Shown: piece by piece, positions 1 through 62,242 of the stretch
Layout of the letters: every line of letters begins with the position of its first letter
Position numbering within the stretch: position 1 is the first letter of the stretch
Virus record (IMG/VR): IMGVR_UViG_3300013800_000004
Location: 64,001 to 128,000 of that record
Origin: a virus
Taxonomy: Duplodnaviria > Heunggongvirae > Uroviricota > Caudoviricetes
Direction: 5' to 3' (one strand)
DNA: 64,000 nucleotides
Translations under genes and position numbers: made by a program
Notes under the pieces: generated by a model
Told to the model about the DNA's origin: nothing
What the model saw: only the letters and a program-made list of their open reading frames with translations
Database searches by the model: none

Positions 1-1060
1 AGTCTGCAAGTGGCTCTCTGGGAAGGCCGCGAGAACCTGGGCCCTTACCGCGACCCTCATCAAGAACAACTTGGTGGAGGGCTGGGGGGTGTACAACGTG
101 GTGGTCCCTGGTCTCTTCGGGTCTCACAACGCCTTCCTCAACGATTTTTGCATTACCCGGATGCAGCAACTGCCGGGGTCGCGGCGACAGGTGCCCGTGA
201 TCGTGGGCTACCGCCAGAGGGACATCGCGGAGTTCCGTCGCAAGATCGACCCGTTCTTCCTGGGGCGCCCAAAGTTCGAGGTGGCGAGTGAGCTCCCGCC
301 GCTGGTCACCCGGCACATCATGGTGGGGATGAACTCGGCACAGCAGGCCAAGTACGAGGAGGCCTTGGAGGGGCTTCTCGTGGTGGGGTCCAAGCAGGGG
401 CAGACCGAGGAGAAGGAGGTCACCAAGCTCACCGCAGTCACCTACTGCCAACAGATCGTGAACCACCCGGACCTCATCGGGGTGGACGGCGAGTCTGAGA
501 AGCTGGACGCCTTGTTGGACCTTGTGGGCCCTGGGGGTGAGCTCGAAGGCGAGAAGGTGATCGTGTTCACCCGGTTTCGCAAGATGGTGGACATCCTGGT
601 CCCGGCGCTCAAGAAGCTCGGCATCAAGTCGTCTCGCATTACAGGGGCTGAAGACGAGAAGGGCCGGAAGGCATCACAGGATGCGTTCCAGGACGCCAAG
701 AGTGACACCCTGGTGTGCTGCATCACCACTGCCGCTGCGGAGGCCATCAACCTCCAGACGGCCAAAGCCCTGGTGTTCTACGACACGCCCTGGTCTGCGG
801 GGGACTACCTCCAGATCCTCGGGCGCATGATCCGTATCGGGTCCACCCACGACCGCTGCTACGCCATCCACCTTGTCACCGAGAAGACCATCGACGAACG
901 GGTGGTGAAGGTGCTCTCGAAGAAGATGGGGCTGGTGGAGTCCGTCCTCGGAAAGCGCATCAAGGGCGAGGGGGACGCAGGCGTAATGGTGGACGCCGTG
1001 AACGACCTCTCAGACCTGTTCGAGGGGCTTCTCCAGGATGCCCGGGGGATCAAGAAGTGA
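1..1060 (+). CDS. SNF2-family (SF2) helicase, C-terminal part; 5' end lies outside the window
   Basis: Frame is open from base 2 and reads ...WALTATLIKNNLVE (motif III). Also KVIVFTRF (IV), AEAINLQTA (V), FYDTPWS and QILGRMIRIG (VI). Confidence 0.9.
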   Translation, partial: VCKWLSGKAARTWALTATLIKNNLVEGWGVYNVVVPGLFGSHNAFLNDFCITRMQQLPGSRRQVPVIVGYRQRDIAEFRRKIDPFFLGRPKFEVASELPPLVTRHIMVGMNSAQQAKYEEALEGLLVVGSKQGQTEEKEVTKLTAVTYCQQIVNHPDLIGVDGESEKLDALLDLVGPGGELEGEKVIVFTRFRKMVDILVPALKKLGIKSSRITGAEDEKGRKASQDAFQDAKSDTLVCCITTAAAEAINLQTAKALVFYDTPWSAGDYLQILGRMIRIGSTHDRCYAIHLVTEKTIDERVVKVLSKKMGLVESVLGKRIKGEGDAGVMVDAVNDLSDLFEGLLQDARGIKK

Positions 1061-1482
1061 TTACCGAAGAACAACTCAAGGACTTGGAGACCCTCATCGG
1101 GGAGTTCCCCGCGAAGCCTGCGCCGTACTCCTACGAGGGTCAAATCGGTTCGGGCCGCAAGAGCAATGGGTACGTGGGCTACCACGTCCACTCCATCTGT
1201 GGCGGGCCCATGCGGGAGAGTGCCACAGAGAAGCACTACTGCATCGGCAACGTCATCGCCAAGGACGAAGACACGGTGGCACGGTTGGCATGCCTCATCG
1301 GAGCGGCCCCAGACCTTCTCGCGGAGGTGGTCCGTCTCCGGGCGGCACTCGCCAATCTGGCAGACGGTGAGCAGGCGGACAAGCGGATTGAGGATGCAGT
1401 GGGATGTGGTGGGGATGGCGTCCACTGCGCTGTGAAAGAGGTGCAGCAGTACGCCCACCGCGCCCTCTTCGGGGGCGAGTGA
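1057..1482 (+). CDS. hypothetical protein
   Basis: GTGA overlap with the helicase stop; protein-like sequence MITEEQLKDLETLIGEF... Confidence 0.7.
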   Translation: MITEEQLKDLETLIGEFPAKPAPYSYEGQIGSGRKSNGYVGYHVHSICGGPMRESATEKHYCIGNVIAKDEDTVARLACLIGAAPDLLAEVVRLRAALANLADGEQADKRIEDAVGCGGDGVHCAVKEVQQYAHRALFGGE

Positions 1483-1835
1483 TGGAAGAGGGCCCCTACT
1501 ACGAGGAGTTCTGCGGGTCGTTGTATCTCCGCAAGGGCAAATCCAAGGACATCCTCAGGATGGTGGATGGCACCGATGAGATCGCCCTCACGTTCGAGCG
1601 GGAGAACTTCGGTCTCATCCGTCAGGGCTCCCCGTCGTCAGTGTCGGAGTACATGATGAAGTTCGAGGCCTGCTTTCCGGGGTTCCTGGCCCCCATCACC
1701 CTCCCGAAAGGGTTCCCCCTGAGCGAGCTCAATGAGGCGTTGCGGACACAGAACGTCCGGGCGCTCATCACCAAGCACTGTCCCGAGGCTCTGGCCTCCA
1801 TCACACCCCCGAGAGACCCGGAGAGCGACCAATGA
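1482..1835 (+). CDS. hypothetical protein
   Basis: TGATG stop/start overlap; MEEGPYYEEFCGSLYLRK... Confidence 0.7.
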   Translation: MEEGPYYEEFCGSLYLRKGKSKDILRMVDGTDEIALTFERENFGLIRQGSPSSVSEYMMKFEACFPGFLAPITLPKGFPLSELNEALRTQNVRALITKHCPEALASITPPRDPESDQ

Positions 1836-2650
1836 CTGGCTGCGACAAGTGTTTTCACACAGGGGCCATCGACGCCGGGTTCACCGACGTGGGCATCCCC
1901 ATCACCCGACCTTGTGCGTGCCAGATCGCACGGGACATCGTGCGGAACGTCAATCGGGGGTGGCCCAACCTGTGCGCGGCACCCAAGATCGAGAGTTCCC
2001 CTCTCTGGGAGCTCACGGGTGACAACGTGTACATCACGGCATCGGACGCCTCTCTTCGGGCGCACCTCCGTCACGTTGGGCTTCGCATGGGGGCCAAGTG
2101 GGGGTTCAAGGTCCACACGGACTCTGACCTGATGACCGCGTGGTTGGCCCCCATCGCCATTGCAGGGAAGGAGATCCTCGACCCTGAGGCAACGGCGGTG
2201 TCCACCGAGCGGGCGACCCTGGTGGACCTCACAGAGCCCCCCGAGCTCCTCATCCTGCGCCTCGGGGTGAAGTCCGCTCGCAACAGCGCCATGGGAGAGG
2301 TGCTCCTGGAGGCCCTTTACCACCGAGCGCACATTGGGAAGCCCGTGTGGGTGGTGGACCAGCCCGGACGCCTGTTCAATCCTGCCCACCTCGCGTTCAG
2401 CGAGGATGCCCTGCACCACATCACCCAATGGGAGCGTGTGGTCCTCGACGAGGTGGGACCCGGCCTGTCCATCGAGATGGTGGGTCACGAGGGGCGCGAC
2501 TACATCTCACAGCCCACACAGAATCGCGGCAACGCCCTGACCCTGTCCGCGGGGTACAGCACATCGAACGCAGCGGCGAGCGCCACCACCCGGATCGAGC
2601 GGACAGTCACCGAGCCCAAGAAGAAGAAGTTCAAGAGGACCGAAGAATGA
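1832..2650 (+). CDS. DnaC/IstB-like helicase-loader homologue with degenerate P-loop
   Basis: N-terminal CxxC...CxC. Segment LLILRLGVKSARNSAMGEVLLEALYHRAHIGKPVWVV resembles the DnaC Walker-B/sensor region. Located just upstream of a DnaB-like gene. Confidence 0.55.
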   Translation: MTGCDKCFHTGAIDAGFTDVGIPITRPCACQIARDIVRNVNRGWPNLCAAPKIESSPLWELTGDNVYITASDASLRAHLRHVGLRMGAKWGFKVHTDSDLMTAWLAPIAIAGKEILDPEATAVSTERATLVDLTEPPELLILRLGVKSARNSAMGEVLLEALYHRAHIGKPVWVVDQPGRLFNPAHLAFSEDALHHITQWERVVLDEVGPGLSIEMVGHEGRDYISQPTQNRGNALTLSAGYSTSNAAASATTRIERTVTEPKKKKFKRTEE

Positions 2651-2967
2651 GCACCGACGAATCCAACTTCCCGGACGACATGGGTTCTGCCGTATCTGCC
2701 TACGGGGGAGCCCCCCCTCCCCCGAGGTCCGGGCTGTACTACGCGCCCCGGGGCACGCCCCGAGAGGACATCCCCATCTTCGCCCTCAACGACATCGTGG
2801 CCGTCCTGGACGAAGCCATCGGGAAGCTGCGGGGGACACTTCACCCCGCGCGCCATCTCGCACTGGACACCCTCAAGCAGGAAGCCATCCTCATCGCCCG
2901 TGCTCGCCTCAATGACGAGGTGACTGCGTACTACGCGAGTCGCGGGATGTTCGGGGGGGGTCGATGA
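2647..2967 (+). CDS. hypothetical protein
   Basis: ATGA overlaps at both ends. Confidence 0.7.
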   Translation: MSTDESNFPDDMGSAVSAYGGAPPPPRSGLYYAPRGTPREDIPIFALNDIVAVLDEAIGKLRGTLHPARHLALDTLKQEAILIARARLNDEVTAYYASRGMFGGGR

Positions 2968-4511
2968 AGTTCCTTCTGCGCTCTTGCTTCATCGCGGTCC
3001 CCACGGATGACCCGGAGCTCACGTTCCGCAACTACTTCGCGCTGTCTGACTCAGGTCTCGGGTTCGACGTGCCCGAGGACACCACCATCTGGGAGTTCAT
3101 CCGGGACTTCTCACAGACCCACAACCACGCCCCCGACGTGCGGACCATCCGGTCGCACTTTGAGAACATCAAGAACCCTGAGGCGGGGGACCGCCTGGAG
3201 ATTATCTCCCCCCTCAAGCCCCTGTTCAAGGGGGACTTCATCAAGCGCCTGGAAGAGCGGGCCGAGGAGCGCCGGTCCCGGATGGTGGTTGACATCCTCC
3301 GTGAGGCCTCGCAGATCCTCCAGACGGGCGTCGAGGTCCAGGAGGGCAAGAAGAAGAAGCACCTCCGCGGCCCCATGGACGCCGTGCGCTACCTCGTGAA
3401 CAAGTCCCACGACATCGTGATGCCCACCTCGGGAGCACGGCTGTCGGGTGAAATCACCGGGGACGGCAACGACTTCATGCGGGAGTACGAGCGGGTCGAG
3501 AACGATCCGCTTGCAGGCATTGGCCAGTTCACGGGCATCGGACAGATGGATGAGGCCCTCGGAGGTGCCAAGAAGCACGAGCTCTGGACGCACGCAGCGT
3601 TCACGGGTGGACTCAAGTCCACCCTTGCGTTCAACTGGGCGTACAACCAAGCGGTGCACTACAAGTACGACTCGCTGGTGTTTTCCCTGGAGATGCCCTA
3701 CGCACAGGTGCGCCGCATTCTCTACGCGATGCACTCCCTCCACCAGAAGTTCCGGGACGACCGCATTCGCTTGGGGGTTCAGAAGAACCCCGGTCCCAAC
3801 GTGGGTCTGGAGTACGGCAAAATCCGTGACGGGAAGCTCTCCAAGCTGGCCCCGGCGGAGAAGACGTTCCTCATGGACTACGTGGTCCCCGACTTCAACT
3901 CAGGGCTCTACGGCAAGATCAACATCGAGGTGAGCGACCCGGACAAGTCTGACTACAACGTCGCAGACATGAGGGCCAGGGCGGAGCTCATCTACTCCAA
4001 GTCCCCGTTCCACCTCCTGTTTGTGGACCACGCCGGACTGCTTTCACCCCGCCAGTGGGTGCCCAGCACCACCGAACGCATCAACGAGGTGATCCGAGAC
4101 CTCAAGCGTCTGGCCATGAACTTCAACCGCGGCGCAGGCATGGCCGTAGTGAACCTGTTCCAAATCTCTCGTGAGGGCTTCAAGGCCGCAGAGAAGATCG
4201 CGGAGAAGTCACAGGGGACGTTCGTCAACGGCCCCTACAACCTCACCCACCTGTCGTACGCCAACGAGGTGGAGCGGAGCTCCGACATCGTGACGGCGAG
4301 CTACCTCAACGATGAGCTCCGGGCTGCGAACAGGGCGCTGTTGCAGTGCATGAAGTCTCGTGACCAAGCTCCGTTTCAGAACTTCTACGCTCGCGTGGAG
4401 TGGCACTGTCGTCGTATCCTCACCTCGCAGGAGATGCCTATGGTGACTGGCCGTAAGGACGGCGACGCCAAGTTGGCGGACTCCCTCAAAGAGATCGAAG
4501 GACTGCTGTGA
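2964..4511 (+). CDS. dnaB: DnaB-like replicative helicase
   Basis: QFTGIGQMDEALGG, Walker A AAFTGGLKST, FSLEMP, LLFVDHAGLL, VNLFQISR, NEVERSSDIV. Confidence 0.85.
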   Translation: MKFLLRSCFIAVPTDDPELTFRNYFALSDSGLGFDVPEDTTIWEFIRDFSQTHNHAPDVRTIRSHFENIKNPEAGDRLEIISPLKPLFKGDFIKRLEERAEERRSRMVVDILREASQILQTGVEVQEGKKKKHLRGPMDAVRYLVNKSHDIVMPTSGARLSGEITGDGNDFMREYERVENDPLAGIGQFTGIGQMDEALGGAKKHELWTHAAFTGGLKSTLAFNWAYNQAVHYKYDSLVFSLEMPYAQVRRILYAMHSLHQKFRDDRIRLGVQKNPGPNVGLEYGKIRDGKLSKLAPAEKTFLMDYVVPDFNSGLYGKINIEVSDPDKSDYNVADMRARAELIYSKSPFHLLFVDHAGLLSPRQWVPSTTERINEVIRDLKRLAMNFNRGAGMAVVNLFQISREGFKAAEKIAEKSQGTFVNGPYNLTHLSYANEVERSSDIVTASYLNDELRAANRALLQCMKSRDQAPFQNFYARVEWHCRRILTSQEMPMVTGRKDGDAKLADSLKEIEGLL

Positions 4512-5218
4512 CATCACCATTCGTCAAAATCCTCCCGTCCAAGTATTACGGGGTGAACACCAAGATCCCTCCGGCATCGTGGGACAGCCACTCTATGTGG
4601 CGGTGTACCAAACACATCCCATCCTCGAAGGTCTACCCGGCTTTCGTGGAGAAGTGCCCTACCTGCAACCAGCCTCGGCCACCCGAGGACCGCAGGCCCG
4701 CCGACCCGTATGCACCTCCCGTGAGGTTGGTGCCATCGCTCCCGGCGGCAGACACGGACCCCAATGCCACCATTGAGGCCCCCCCGGCCGTGGTGACCGA
4801 GGAGTCACTGGAGAACATGCGGACCCTCCGAGACGTGACCGCGGAACTGAACTTTGACAAGGACATGTCGCTGGGGCAGGCACAGCGGGACTTCGACGCC
4901 CTCGTCATGGGTGACCTCCTCAGCACCACCACGTCCGTGGTTCGTGCGATCCAGGACGATGGTGTGGCGAAGATCCAGGACGAAGTGGGCCGAGAGTTGG
5001 CGGCAGAACTCAGGAGTTCTGCCGCTTCCCTCAAGTCGAGGAAGGCCAAATGCCCTGGCCCTGGGTGCCGGAAGAGCGCGCGGGAGTCCAGCCCGTACTG
5101 TTCCAAGATCTGCTCAGACCGATGCCTCCGTCTCCGCAAGAAGACTACGCCCCTCACCAAGGTCGAGGCGGGGCACCTCAACCGTATCGAGACCGCTCTG
5201 GCGAACTGGAGGAAGTGA
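4508..5218 (+). CDS. hypothetical protein with two Cys-rich (putative Zn-finger) segments
   Basis: WRC...CPTC near the N-terminus and CPGPGC...YCSKIC near the C-terminus; coupled overlaps with both neighbours. Confidence 0.65.
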   Translation: MTSPFVKILPSKYYGVNTKIPPASWDSHSMWRCTKHIPSSKVYPAFVEKCPTCNQPRPPEDRRPADPYAPPVRLVPSLPAADTDPNATIEAPPAVVTEESLENMRTLRDVTAELNFDKDMSLGQAQRDFDALVMGDLLSTTTSVVRAIQDDGVAKIQDEVGRELAAELRSSAASLKSRKAKCPGPGCRKSARESSPYCSKICSDRCLRLRKKTTPLTKVEAGHLNRIETALANWRK

Positions 5219-5469
5219 TGGTCGAGCCGAAGGTTGTTATCTACCCGTTTGGGGACAGGGCCTACACGTCCACCTTGTACTACGGGGCGGACGTGAGAGC
5301 TTCCTTGCGGGGGATGGTGGCAGGGTCTGTCCAGTGCGTGGTGACGAGCCCCCCCTATTGGGGACTCCGTCAATACCTCCCGGCGGGGTCTGTCATGATG
5401 CGAGAGGATTTGACGGATGCCGAAAGGGTCTACGTCGAGGGTGAGTTGAGGAAGGCTGGGGTGTTGTGA
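5218..5469 (+). CDS. beta-class N4-C/N6-A DNA methyltransferase, N-terminal fragment
   Basis: GSVQCVVTSPPYWGLRQY (catalytic motif IV), then a 30-aa tail and stop. Confidence 0.85.
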   Translation: MVEPKVVIYPFGDRAYTSTLYYGADVRASLRGMVAGSVQCVVTSPPYWGLRQYLPAGSVMMREDLTDAERVYVEGELRKAGVL

Positions 5470-6074
5470 ACCGGCGGGAGGAACTCCCGCTCTGTGTTGG
5501 ACTTGCTGTGGACCCATCCATGGCATTTCCGGCACAGGGTGACGAGATTCCCCAAGGATGACCTGAGTTCAGGATGTGTGGACCATGGGTAAACGTGGTG
5601 GGCATGGAGTCCCCGATGTCCTTTCTTGGGAGACCCACACTTCACACACACGTACTGATCCCTGCGATACACTTCCCGTACGAGGTTCATCCACTCCCCG
5701 CTGGCGTACAACGACTGACGTTCAGGGGTCGTTCCGCCGCGAAAATTCGGGTTCGCCGCGCCAGTTCTTCCGTGCATCCCATTCAGTGCTCCCCGCAGAT
5801 GGGGTTTGGGCACGGACGCTTTCTCCCGAAGGATAGACTTGGTCTCCTCTGTATGTCTTTTCCCCTTGAAGGGATTGGGCATCCCTGTTCGAGTGTAGTT
5901 GTCGGCCCCCGAAAGGTTCGCCCCTCGGGGGCGGGTTGCGATCCCAAGAGCACGGAGTTTGGTGTGGACGGTCTTGGGATCACACCCAACAATCTTTGCA
6001 ATCCCGTAGGTTGAGAGCCCTTGCGTCACGTAGTGTTCGCGCAGCCAATCCGGGTCGATTTGTACAGTGCCCAT
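5430..6074 (-). mobile_element. free-standing HNH homing endonuclease (HTH + NUMOD3 + HNH), antisense, inside the methyltransferase locus
   Basis: PFKGKRHTEETKSILRE (NUMOD3); CVKCG...LHAHHVYPW...NLVTLCRKCHGWVH (HNH). ATG at 6074 with GAGG upstream. Confidence 0.9.
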
Positions 6075-29933: not shown

Positions 29934-30119
29934 CTACCGGGTGGGGGACGGTCTCCCGGCGAACCGGGTCTGACAGACCCGTAGCAGGCACCGGAACCCT
30001 GTGAGAGAGGATCTCGTCTCAGTGGGGAGACGGAGCCAGATTTTCCCCACCCCGTCGCCAGTACGTTGCTGGTGGGAACCCCCCTTGAGTTGGTGGCGGG
30101 TCTTGCTTTCGGGTCTCAC
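29934..30119 (-). CDS. orphan FGE/CLec C-terminal cassette mini-protein (61 aa)
   Basis: GTGA overlap with the upstream stop; HQLKGGSH-X24-GFRCLLRVC. Confidence 0.55.
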   Translation of the reverse strand: MRPESKTRHQLKGGSHQQRTGDGVGKIWLRLPTETRSSLTGFRCLLRVCQTRFAGRPSPTR

Positions 30120-59854: not shown

Positions 59855-59908
59855 ACCAAGGATCACCCCCGTTGTGGGTGATTTATGGTTCTATCGCCTC
59901 CGGCGAGT

Positions 59909-60823
59909 ATGGGAAATCATTCAGAGGCAATCCGCAAAGTTCTCAATGCGAAGCCCGGGGCTGGCGCAAGGTCGCTTCGAGCCAAGGCCGAGTTTGAGGA
60001 GCAGTTCGACAGTGCGTCCAAGTTGGACGCGGTGGATCCCGCCATCGCCAGGATCATGGTCGACTCGGGGTTGGAAGATGGGGCGGACCCGGGGGACGAC
60101 AAAGTGTCGGTCTCCAAGGCGACTTGGTCCGCCGCGGACCTCAAGCCCTCCCAGACCTCTATCGTCCTGGGCAAGGTGGTGGGGATGGCCATTGGGATGC
60201 TGATCTCCAACAAGATCGGCGGGAACCTTGGGGCCATCGTCTCCAGCGACGGCTACATCATGGACGGTCACCACCGTTGGGCCGCGACGATCCTGGCGGG
60301 AGGAAAGTCGGGGAAGGTCGGTGGGTACAAGGCTGCCCTCAAGGGGCCTGACCTGCTGAGGGTTCTGAACATCCTCACCAAGGGTCTCTTCGGGGTCGGC
60401 GGAGGCAAGGCGGGCAAGGGGGCGATCTCGGACCTGACCCCTGCCAAGGTCAAAGCCGCCATGCAGGACGCCTCGGAGAAGGGGATCTCGGGGGAGTTTC
60501 CTATCTCCGCTGAGAAGATCACAAAGGCTCTGGAGTCGCACTTTGGCTCGGTGGATGAGGGGATTGAGGAGATGGCTGCGAATGCCAAGCTCATCGACAC
60601 CTCGACGCCGGGGTGGGCGCCGGACCGGAAGCAGATGCCAGTGATTGAGCCCGAGCAAGTCCCCGAGGCCGCCGCTGCTCTGTCCGAAGGGGTCGTCGAT
60701 TGGCACGCCCCCTTCAAGCAGGCACAGCTTCGTGTGGCCACCATCCAGCTGGCCATCGACAACCCTGGCCCCGTGCGGGACGCTCTTCTCCCAATCCTCA
60801 AGAGGACCGCGGGCAAGGTCTGA
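59909..60823 (+). CDS. ParB/Srx-like domain protein with C-terminal LR..I.LA..NP module
   Basis: DLKPSQ...IVSSDGYIMDGHHRWAA; ends QLRVATIQLAIDNPGPVRDALLPILKRTAGKV. Confidence 0.8.
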   Translation: MGNHSEAIRKVLNAKPGAGARSLRAKAEFEEQFDSASKLDAVDPAIARIMVDSGLEDGADPGDDKVSVSKATWSAADLKPSQTSIVLGKVVGMAIGMLISNKIGGNLGAIVSSDGYIMDGHHRWAATILAGGKSGKVGGYKAALKGPDLLRVLNILTKGLFGVGGGKAGKGAISDLTPAKVKAAMQDASEKGISGEFPISAEKITKALESHFGSVDEGIEEMAANAKLIDTSTPGWAPDRKQMPVIEPEQVPEAAAALSEGVVDWHAPFKQAQLRVATIQLAIDNPGPVRDALLPILKRTAGKV

Positions 60824-60856
60824 TACGTAGTCGCGGGCTCATGGCGTAAGAGAGCC

Positions 60857-61711
60857 ATGAGCCCGCCCGGCATCTACGGCATTGAGACTCGCGCCTGTGA
60901 CCCCGACAACCCCGCTTTCCTCGGGGAGGCCGGGACGTACTTGATCCGCGAGCTTGACGGCTCCTCGGGGGACGTCGAGGTATACGACGCCCTCCAAGAC
61001 CTCCCCGCCCACAACTCCCCGATCCTGGTCGCAGTCACGGACGACGCCGAGTACTTCTTCGGCGTCCACCCTCACTTCGGCCTCGTGCCGCAGCTCGAAG
61101 TCCTGCCCGGTCCCGACGGGCAGATCGCAGAGTACTGGCCGATGTACGAGGAGCTCGGCTTGGGGGTGGACGAGGGGGGCTGGGACGTGCCCTACCCCCT
61201 CCCCACGGGCGACCTCCACTGGGTCGCCTACGTGCCCCCCACCCCCCGGAGTGGGTTTCAGATGGGCCCCCCCGGCAAGACCCGCCGCGTCGACCTCCCC
61301 GGCGGGTGGGTCTCGAAGACGACCACAACGGTGCGCGAGTGGAACCTGTACGCGGCGGCGGTGGGGAAGCCATTGAAGCCGACGGAGGGAAAGCGCAACG
61401 GGGGCGAAGTGGACCTCTCGCACCATCCGGTCACGGAGGTCTCCTGGTACGATGCGTGCAACTGGTGCGAGTGGGCCGGGCTCGCCCTCCCCTCCGAGGA
61501 GCTCTGGGAGTGGACGGCCCGGGGCCCGGACGAGCGCACCTACCCGTGGGGGAACGCGCCCCCCGATGACGACAACTGTGTCTCCTCCTGCGTGACGGGA
61601 CGGGACGGGACGGACACGATCCTCGCGTGTCCGGGCGGGGACGGGCCCTTTGGGCACCGGCAAATGGTCGGCAACGTGTGGGTGTGGACGTCGACGCCGT
61701 GGACGTCATAG
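60857..61711 (+). CDS. FGE-sulfatase (C-type lectin fold) domain protein lacking the C-terminal RGG.W...GFR segment
   Basis: HPVTEVSWYDA..WC.WAG..LPSEELWE..ARG....YPWG...GPFG..QMVGNVWVW, then stop 7 residues later. Confidence 0.9.
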   Translation: MSPPGIYGIETRACDPDNPAFLGEAGTYLIRELDGSSGDVEVYDALQDLPAHNSPILVAVTDDAEYFFGVHPHFGLVPQLEVLPGPDGQIAEYWPMYEELGLGVDEGGWDVPYPLPTGDLHWVAYVPPTPRSGFQMGPPGKTRRVDLPGGWVSKTTTTVREWNLYAAAVGKPLKPTEGKRNGGEVDLSHHPVTEVSWYDACNWCEWAGLALPSEELWEWTARGPDERTYPWGNAPPDDDNCVSSCVTGRDGTDTILACPGGDGPFGHRQMVGNVWVWTSTPWTS

Positions 61712-61881
61712 CGCCCCGGTCTCGGGTTGTCTCATCCCGCGTCTGCCGTAGCAGGTGTTGGGACCACCCTGTTCCTGCCAGGATGTTCGCGTTCCACCGC
61801 AGCGGAACGCTGCCGTCGCATCGCTACAACGTCATCGGGTTTCGAGCATCGAGGGGCTGTAGGAGGGGGAAGGGGTCGTGA
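61699..61881 (+). CDS. FGE/CLec C-terminal cassette 1
   Basis: RVCRSRCW-X25-GFRASRGCRR; start uncertain (GTG 61699 or 61684); -1 frame relative to the FGE gene. Confidence 0.75.
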   Translation: MDVIAPRSRVVSSRVCRSRCWDHPVPARMFAFHRSGTLPSHRYNVIGFRASRGCRRGKGS

Positions 61882-62039
61882 ATCCCTATCTCATCATCCC
61901 CGTCACCGTCCGCGGCGACTCTTGGGCGAAACTCCCGATCCTCGCCCGAGACGCTGGGGACCGTAGTTGGCAGTTCCCGGAGGACTCCTACCCCACCGGA
62001 GGGTTCCGAGCGTCAAGGCGTTGCAAGAGGGCAAAGTGA
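61878..62039 (+). CDS. FGE/CLec C-terminal cassette 2 (53 aa, absent from the ORF track)
   Basis: VTVRGDSW-X25-GFRASRRCKR; GTGA overlap and AGGAGG upstream. Confidence 0.8.
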   Translation: MNPYLIIPVTVRGDSWAKLPILARDAGDRSWQFPEDSYPTGGFRASRRCKRAK

Positions 62040-62056
62040 GAAAGTCGAGTAACCTA

Positions 62057-62242
62057 ATGGAGCCCTTCCGCATCCATCGTGGTTGGTGCTGGATCATCGA
62101 CCTTCCTGTCAGGGTGCGCGCGGCGCGTAGATTCAGGGACGCGCTCGTGTTCCGGGACGTCAACGTCGGGTTCCGAGCGTCTCGTGGGTGCAAGCGGTGC
62201 CCTGCGGAGAGAGCAGACCGAGCCCCGAGCTATGCCCGGTAG
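62057..62242 (+). CDS. FGE/CLec C-terminal cassette 3
   Basis: RIHRGWCW-X25-GFRASRGCKR; ATG 62057. Confidence 0.8.
   Translation: MEPFRIHRGWCWIIDLPVRVRAARRFRDALVFRDVNVGFRASRGCKRCPAERADRAPSYAR

Follow-up and report, generated by a model that had tools for sequence, protein, structure and literature searches.

A truncated FGE-type lectin-fold gene of a very large phage is followed by mini-genes that probably supply its missing C-terminal segment

The window analysed here is a stretch of 64,000 nt from the 148-kb IMG/VR virus record IMGVR_UViG_3300013800_000004 (positions 64,001 to 128,000 of that record). Completeness of the record is estimated by CheckV at 33%, and as 148 kb amount to only this fraction the phage behind the window is very large. 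The locus under study consists of a gene here termed the scaffold gene, three short open reading frames directly behind it (tips c1 to c3) and a candidate orphan tip elsewhere in the window (Table 1). The scaffold protein ends in ...GNVWVWTSTPWTS*, with the stop codon 7 residues past the motif GNVWVW. Comparison with the Pfam FGE-sulfatase profile PF03781 gave a match with an E-value of 2.5e-21 and 77 bits (gathering cut-off 23.3), covering profile positions 30-194 of 255 with the final ~60 positions absent. The stop falls past profile position ~194-198 both in the window and throughout its close relatives, and no complete PF03781 domain is present in one polypeptide, confirming the loss of the C-terminal segment noted in a preliminary description of this DNA. 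A profile of the scaffold family aligned with the solved FGE-fold chains OvsA, SUMF2, FGE, EgtB, PorK and TvpA, and these alignments end ~65 residues short of the chain ends.

Table 1. Features of the scaffold and tip locus, in positions of the window
Feature	Position	Strand	Description
Upstream gene	59885-60823		312 aa; ParB/sulfiredoxin-like DGHHRW motif; sole PHROG match 2859, function unassigned
Inverted repeat GGGCTCATGGC ... GCCATGAGCCC	60835-60845 and 60854-60864		Perfect, 11 bp; encloses GGCGTAAG; 3' arm spans scaffold ATG
Promoter-like motif GGCGTAAG	60843-60850	+	7 nt 5' of scaffold ATG; read from the sequence
Scaffold gene	60857-61711	+	284 aa; N-terminal domain of ~120 aa, function unassigned, then first three quarters of FGE-type C-type-lectin fold
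Tip c1	61699-61881	+	60 aa from GTG 61699; seed-HMM E 1.1e-5
Candidate tip c2	61878-62039	+	53 aa; most divergent tip; ortholog in L003
Tip c3	62036-62242	+	68 aa from GTG 62036; alternative ATG 62057; seed-HMM E 2.1e-9
Candidate orphan tip	29934-30119	-	61 aa; between DUF5710-like gene and tdk; seed-HMM E 0.029

Other searches with the scaffold were less informative. Its match in PHROGs, to a 'kinase' family, arises solely through the FGE domain, and the neighbouring genes were uninformative. No blastn match for the locus was found among GenBank phages, and a search of the ESM Atlas with scaffold residues 1-140 returned no usable match. Folded alone by AlphaFold2, the scaffold reached a mean pLDDT of 56.9, too poor for a fold search with the N-terminal domain, and residues 234-284 fell below 35. 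The sequence CGTAAG, which forms part of the promoter-like motif, is also present 7-10 nt before the scaffold ATG in the relatives L002 and L003.

The spacing W-x25-GFRASR.C(R/K)R is exact in c1, c2 and c3, as had been described, and each tip lies one frame back from its predecessor (relative to the scaffold, c1 -1, c2 -2 and c3 0). Homology to the FGE C-terminus was assessed with a seed HMM built from 10 tips of other phages only and run on 5364 six-frame pieces, a non-circular test; E-values from an iterated tip HMM were discarded as circular for c1 and c3 and seed-only values used instead. On this homology c1 and c3 can be securely assigned as FGE C-terminal segments. Tip c2 went undetected by the seed HMM among the same pieces, and its tail, its spacing and its ortholog in L003 are what mark it as a putative tip; the earlier proposal that all three encode the missing segment therefore holds for c1 and c3 and is more tentative for c2. 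For the proposed fourth copy on the complementary strand, the open reading frame and a GTGA overlap with the stop of the gene upstream are present, and similarity is weak (E 0.029-0.035 with the tip HMMs), making it a weak candidate. None of the four tips of the window was matched by Pfam; tips of relatives match profile positions 204-255. When a 22-tip profile was compared with the PDB, only C-terminal ends of FGE-fold chains fell below E 0.1, including residues 253-292 of the 294 of TvpA, and the iterated tip HMM also recovered in-frame C-termini of ordinary intact FGE proteins (loci L009-L020). The framework residues R, W, P, R and GFR, the open frames and the coupled starts are all retained in the tips. 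Tip c1 is without the GG of the RGGSW motif, and its dN/dS of 0.72 (window against L003) also fits relaxed constraint.

Both the c1/c2 and the c2/c3 junctions of the window are GTGA stop/start overlaps, and AGGAGG lies at 61861-61866, 11 nt upstream of the c2 start. At the scaffold/c1 junction the stop does not coincide with a start codon; the closest one, a GTG, lies 13 nt upstream and gives a 13-nt overlap, the c1 frame being open from 61570 to 61881 with other GTG codons at 61684, 61678 and 61627. The overlaps of c1 and c2 and the ribosome-binding site of c2 are as first reported, and the scaffold/c1 junction of the window is, as judged from sequence, the weakest case for coupling. In the related huge-phage contig L005, 12 of 12 junctions are 4-nt ATGA or GTGA overlaps, scaffold stop included. 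Junctions in L003, L007 and L008 are also stop/start overlaps (the types across relatives being ATGA, GTGA or TAGTG), with an ATG or GTG overlapping the very stop of the scaffold gene in L005, L007 and L008. For every downstream tip, Shine-Dalgarno-like words lie within the basic tail of the preceding copy, and the window junction ...CCGTGGACGTCATAGCG holds no X XXY YYZ slippery heptamer. Together, the start/stop overlaps, the Shine-Dalgarno-like tails and the absence of a slippery heptamer argue for translational coupling and not frameshifting. Swapping of tips by frameshift, one of the mechanisms originally envisaged, is not supported, given the lack of a slippery site and the start codons at every junction in relatives. 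Read-through of the scaffold TAG stop was also considered and rejected, the frame past the stop having no FGE features.

Sequence near-identical to the locus is present in runs of 17 studies, from freshwater, soil, sludge and wastewater. Contigs of a 2014 biofilter run span 61374-62218 with 0 differences (845 nt), a contig of a 2025 run spans 61291-61844 with 1 difference and a contig of a 2023 run spans 61307-61868 with 5 differences. As the stop and the array recur in independent runs dated 2014 to 2025, these are not an assembly error, and a sequencing error at the 61709 stop, a possibility raised in the preliminary description, is refuted by the contigs of these three runs. Two matching runs labelled RNA-Seq are probably DNA. 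No rearrangement joints and no meaningful gaps in cover were seen in contigs of four runs, although contigs cannot show rare forms; swapping of tips by recombination, the other mechanism envisaged, thus found no support in the contigs examined.

The five closest homologues of the scaffold (P0001-P0005; BLASTP identities 88, 81, 45, 44 and 45%) all end 4-7 residues past GN(V/A)W.W, and the same truncated gene is present in four IMG/VR huge-phage contigs of 56-266 kb (L005-L008). An exhaustive profile search placed the truncation at one common point in every close homologue, with identities reaching down to 38%, and in ~9 clusters formed at 50% identity; lineages whose synonymous divergence exceeds 0.4 still share it exactly. 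Scaffold dN/dS values of 0.23-0.32 (0.23 against L003) indicate purifying selection. Since a truncated fold has been kept for so long and under purifying selection, the missing strands would be needed from somewhere.

Arrays of tips beside a truncated FGE gene recur in related huge-phage contigs, where a single scaffold is accompanied by anything from 2 to 14 tips. In L003, the relative at 81% identity, c1 and c2 are present, with an ATGA overlap at the c2 junction, plus an orphan tip 2.9 kb away; L007 has two tips, L008 three and L005 eleven, in a group of six followed, after three other genes, by a group of five. Pfam searches of whole records identified one split scaffold in each (profile 12-198) and separate tips at profile 196-254; matches of relatives' tips extend over 196-255 in all, some above the cut-off. 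Dispersed tips are common besides the scaffold-adjacent ones, one record holding two at 9 kb as well as one at 190 kb and another holding five at 56 kb. A length-restricted search of public data yielded at least 1112 clusters of stand-alone tip proteins of 33-105 aa, many of which share contigs, and on three of these contigs gene callers predict chains of 48-59-aa genes adjoining scaffolds of 274-277 aa.

A number of further observations concern the surroundings of these genes. In L003 (1873-2577) tip c2 has no stop and continues in frame into an AAA_33 (P-loop kinase) gene; an AAA_33 gene is also found downstream of tips in L023 and L024, and c3 of the window begins ...NLMEPF, resembling the kinase start SMEPLG. 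In the 88% relative L002, ~5.8 kb of extra genes (614-5877), including PALP- and ADDT-domain proteins, lie between the ParB-like and scaffold genes, and contigs L002 and L004 both end no more than 130 nt past the scaffold gene. An orphan 55-aa tip lies right behind an AAA ATPase gene amid replication genes of another phage (L059:8001-8168) and is letter-identical on 13 contigs of different samples. The top matches of the scaffold profile in the representative library are the proteins P0161, P0162 and P0201, of 1900-3700 aa and with up to 11 FGE-domain stretches.

One DNA framework, identical even at synonymous sites, is common to ten tips of L005, L007 and L008, and nearly all differences between these tips fall on the first two positions of NNC codons. 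In the variable part, the 64 invariant columns comprise 27 C, 27 G and 10 T with no A, and A is included in 30 of the 38 variable columns. Pattern scans of contigs of several samples found 31 distinct copies of this framework, and a second framework with the same pattern, belonging to the window's own lineage, is shared by L003 c1, the L003 orphan and the L059 tip. Variation at NNC codons with A-free invariant columns is, at the level of sequence, the signature of mutagenic retrohoming by a diversity-generating retroelement (DGR) in the sister clades, and from this substitution pattern alone the tip diversity there would appear to have been made by a retroelement. Variation of the tips at most positions may argue for a binder over a catalytic FGE of the SUMF1 type. 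Tips c1 to c3 of the window depart from adenine-only variation, with many other differing positions and no variation between samples, and c1 and c3 deviate from the framework of their lineage at non-adenine positions. They look like onetime variable regions that have become fixed. In several relatives, tips recur letter for letter on 7-13 contigs of different samples.

Neither a reverse transcriptase nor a template repeat was detected in the material searched. RVT_1 had no match in the 148-kb record and five related records (~940 kb in total, the records being 13-59% complete), and no template-like copy was found in phage records or in viral, metagenome or genome scans, the best candidate having AAC at 5 of ~14 variable codons. 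In viral and metagenome contigs the template-like pattern retrieved nothing and the framework pattern only further variable copies. A genome scan with the tips of the window lineage returned only bacterial FGE ends, 42-67% identical and at most 73% at the DNA level. The tails of sister-clade tips carry CGGGG-N7-CCCCG, which in a check for IMH and hairpin elements folded no better than shuffles (z ~0), and a search of the window's tip tails for a GC-rich IMH/hairpin gave nothing notable. Diversification free of a reverse transcriptase, as first suggested, is only partly supported and is not upheld as a principle for the family, sister-clade tips bearing the adenine signature of a DGR.

Divergence is unevenly distributed along the locus. 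Between the window and L002 there are 48 mismatches in the first 200 nt of the scaffold gene and 2 in 61457-61656, followed by 10 in the 32-nt junction (61693-61724) and 1 in the variable part of c1; between L005 and L007 identity climbs from 0.65 to 0.98 along the scaffold gene. This pattern suggests a mosaic produced by recombination within the module, the N-terminal domain being variable. At first c1 seemed unusually conserved at synonymous sites, but this belongs to the regional mosaic, the 3' half of the scaffold gene being equally conserved.

Completion of the fold was modelled for c1. Scaffold residues 105-284 together with c1 gave an ipSAE of 0.93 in three runs, compared with 0.01 for the best of three controls, with a partner pLDDT of at least 69 and at least 87% of contacts shared between runs. 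The ipSAE pass mark, which 58 of 80 solved complexes but only 2 of 110 mismatched pairs attain, is only rough here, own alignments having been used. In the model the tip GFR packs on the GNVWVW and HPVTEV segments of the scaffold, the pLDDT of which is 91 with c1 and 71 with unrelated partners. As the two chains are halves of a fold that has often been solved as a single chain, the pass shows likeness and not binding; it probably reflects resemblance to those solved structures, and perhaps memory of the intact fold, and is not proof that the chains bind.

These data are probably best accounted for by a split FGE-type C-type-lectin variable protein, in which the scaffold is completed in trans by separately translated tips. 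In DGR target proteins the last quarter of the lectin fold bears the variable region, and it is this segment that makes up the ligand-binding surface. On this reading the scaffold gene would provide the N-terminal domain and the first three quarters of the fold, and the last quarter would be supplied in trans by tip proteins of 53-68 aa, each translated from its own start and coupled to the preceding stop by a short overlap. One transcript could thereby yield one scaffold and several alternative tips, each of which would insert its strands into the scaffold and complete the fold, giving a small set of binders with differing specificities. The tips would descend from DGR variable regions. In the sister phages they would still be copies of one framework differing at adenine-templated positions, ~170 nt each beside a single scaffold, and in the phage of the window the three adjacent tips and the orphan would have diverged beyond any common template and, being identical in samples 11 years apart, may represent a fixed, germline-like repertoire. 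The original idea of one body with alternative tips is in this form supported by the conserved split, the separate coupled reading frames and the orphan tips, with completion of the fold predicted by modelling for c1.

Other explanations can be weighed against the same observations. The tips could be live DGR targets, in the phage of the window as elsewhere, served by a reverse transcriptase and template encoded by the host or by the two thirds of the phage genome that are unsequenced. The strong signature in the sister clades, with 31 copies on one framework, is what such a system would leave, the records searched are only 13-59% complete, and diversification of remote targets in trans has been documented (PMC10907252). 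Set against this are the constancy of the window's tips, with 0 differences over 845 nt in the 2014 run and 0-1 in 2025 runs, the departure of c1 and c3 from the lineage framework at non-adenine positions, the tips of several relatives that are likewise letter-identical between samples, and the failure to find RVT_1 in ~940 kb or a template-like copy in any scan; continuing diversification of this kind is therefore considered unlikely.

A programmed -1 frameshift or read-through that fuses the scaffold with c1, the remaining copies being silent spares moved in by recombination in the manner of pilin or CDI/Rhs cassettes, would account for the -1 frame of c1 and for the lack of a start codon exactly at the window's scaffold stop, and conserved flanks could support such recombination; the range of 2 to 14 tips among relatives and the mosaic gradient of identity along the gene also speak for this reading. 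It is nevertheless quite improbable, given that the junction has no X XXY YYZ site, that the scaffold stop of L005, L007 and L008 overlaps an ATG or GTG, that each of the downstream tips comes with a start codon and is preceded by a copy with a Shine-Dalgarno-like tail, and that contigs of four runs, in which rare forms would be invisible, show no joints. Least probable of all is a decaying locus, in which a broken FGE gene and leftover template or variable-region copies of a DGR have no function. The divergence of the window's tips beyond detection by Pfam, the loss of RGGSW in c1 and its dN/dS of 0.72 are in keeping with decay, but a truncation identical across lineages at synonymous divergence above 0.4, purifying selection on the scaffold, the retention of framework residues, open frames and coupled starts, and the occurrence of the arrangement on many contigs and in 17 studies all speak against it.

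The split variable protein favoured here can be compared with systems that share some of its features. TvpA of Treponema denticola (PDB 2Y3C), a single-chain DGR variable protein, has the same fold, and its C-terminal end is where the tip profile aligns; sister-clade tips likewise vary only at adenine-templated NNC codons. In contrast to TvpA, the variable segment here is a separate gene product with many tips per scaffold, no reverse transcriptase, accessory gene or template was found nearby, and the tips of the window are not varying. CDI/Rhs orphan C-terminal cassettes, silent pilin cassettes and the invertible tail-fibre ends of Mu (Gin) and P1 (Cin) are modules that remain silent until recombined into an expressed gene. 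They resemble the present arrangement in combining a constant body with alternative C-terminal modules and conserved joints, whereas here every module starts at a codon of its own, coupled to the stop before it, and no rearrangement was observed. DGRs with several target genes, remote targets and tandem lectin domains have already been described (PMC5758913, PMC10907252), among them a DGR with up to eight targets in Stenotrophomonas (PMC5758913) and remote targets diversified in trans in Thiohalocapsa (PMC10907252). Several variable regions, some of them distant, are common to these and to the present system with its orphan tips; theirs are each a complete gene or lectin domain, whereas here the ~55-aa variable segment stands alone and one scaffold is shared. 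Searches of the full-text literature found no account of mini-genes consisting of a variable region only with a split scaffold, in agreement with the preliminary description, and the arrangement is apparently a real, conserved and undescribed variant of the DGR-type lectin-fold variable protein.

To our knowledge, no natural hypervariable binders outside vertebrate immunity are better known than DGR variable proteins, and all of those described are single chains. A split protein of the type proposed would change this picture, the variable segment becoming a detachable peptide of ~55 aa that plugs into a shared scaffold, and would mean that the lectin fold tolerates fragment complementation. 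It would also provide a compact design for engineered binder libraries, with one scaffold and swappable tips. The presence of the DGR mark with neither reverse transcriptase nor template in ~1 Mb of phage DNA raises the question of whether the mutagenic machinery is encoded by the host or elsewhere in the phage genome. A wider and more tentative possibility, somewhat short of an even chance, is that this huge-phage clade possesses a two-chain binder with an invariant scaffold and non-covalent variable peptides, the library of which is written by a trans-acting and possibly host-encoded DGR. Were this so, a germline array and targeted hypermutation would be combined at ~170 nt per specificity, and the split protein would explain how a dozen specificities can be held in one phage at the genomic price of two genes.
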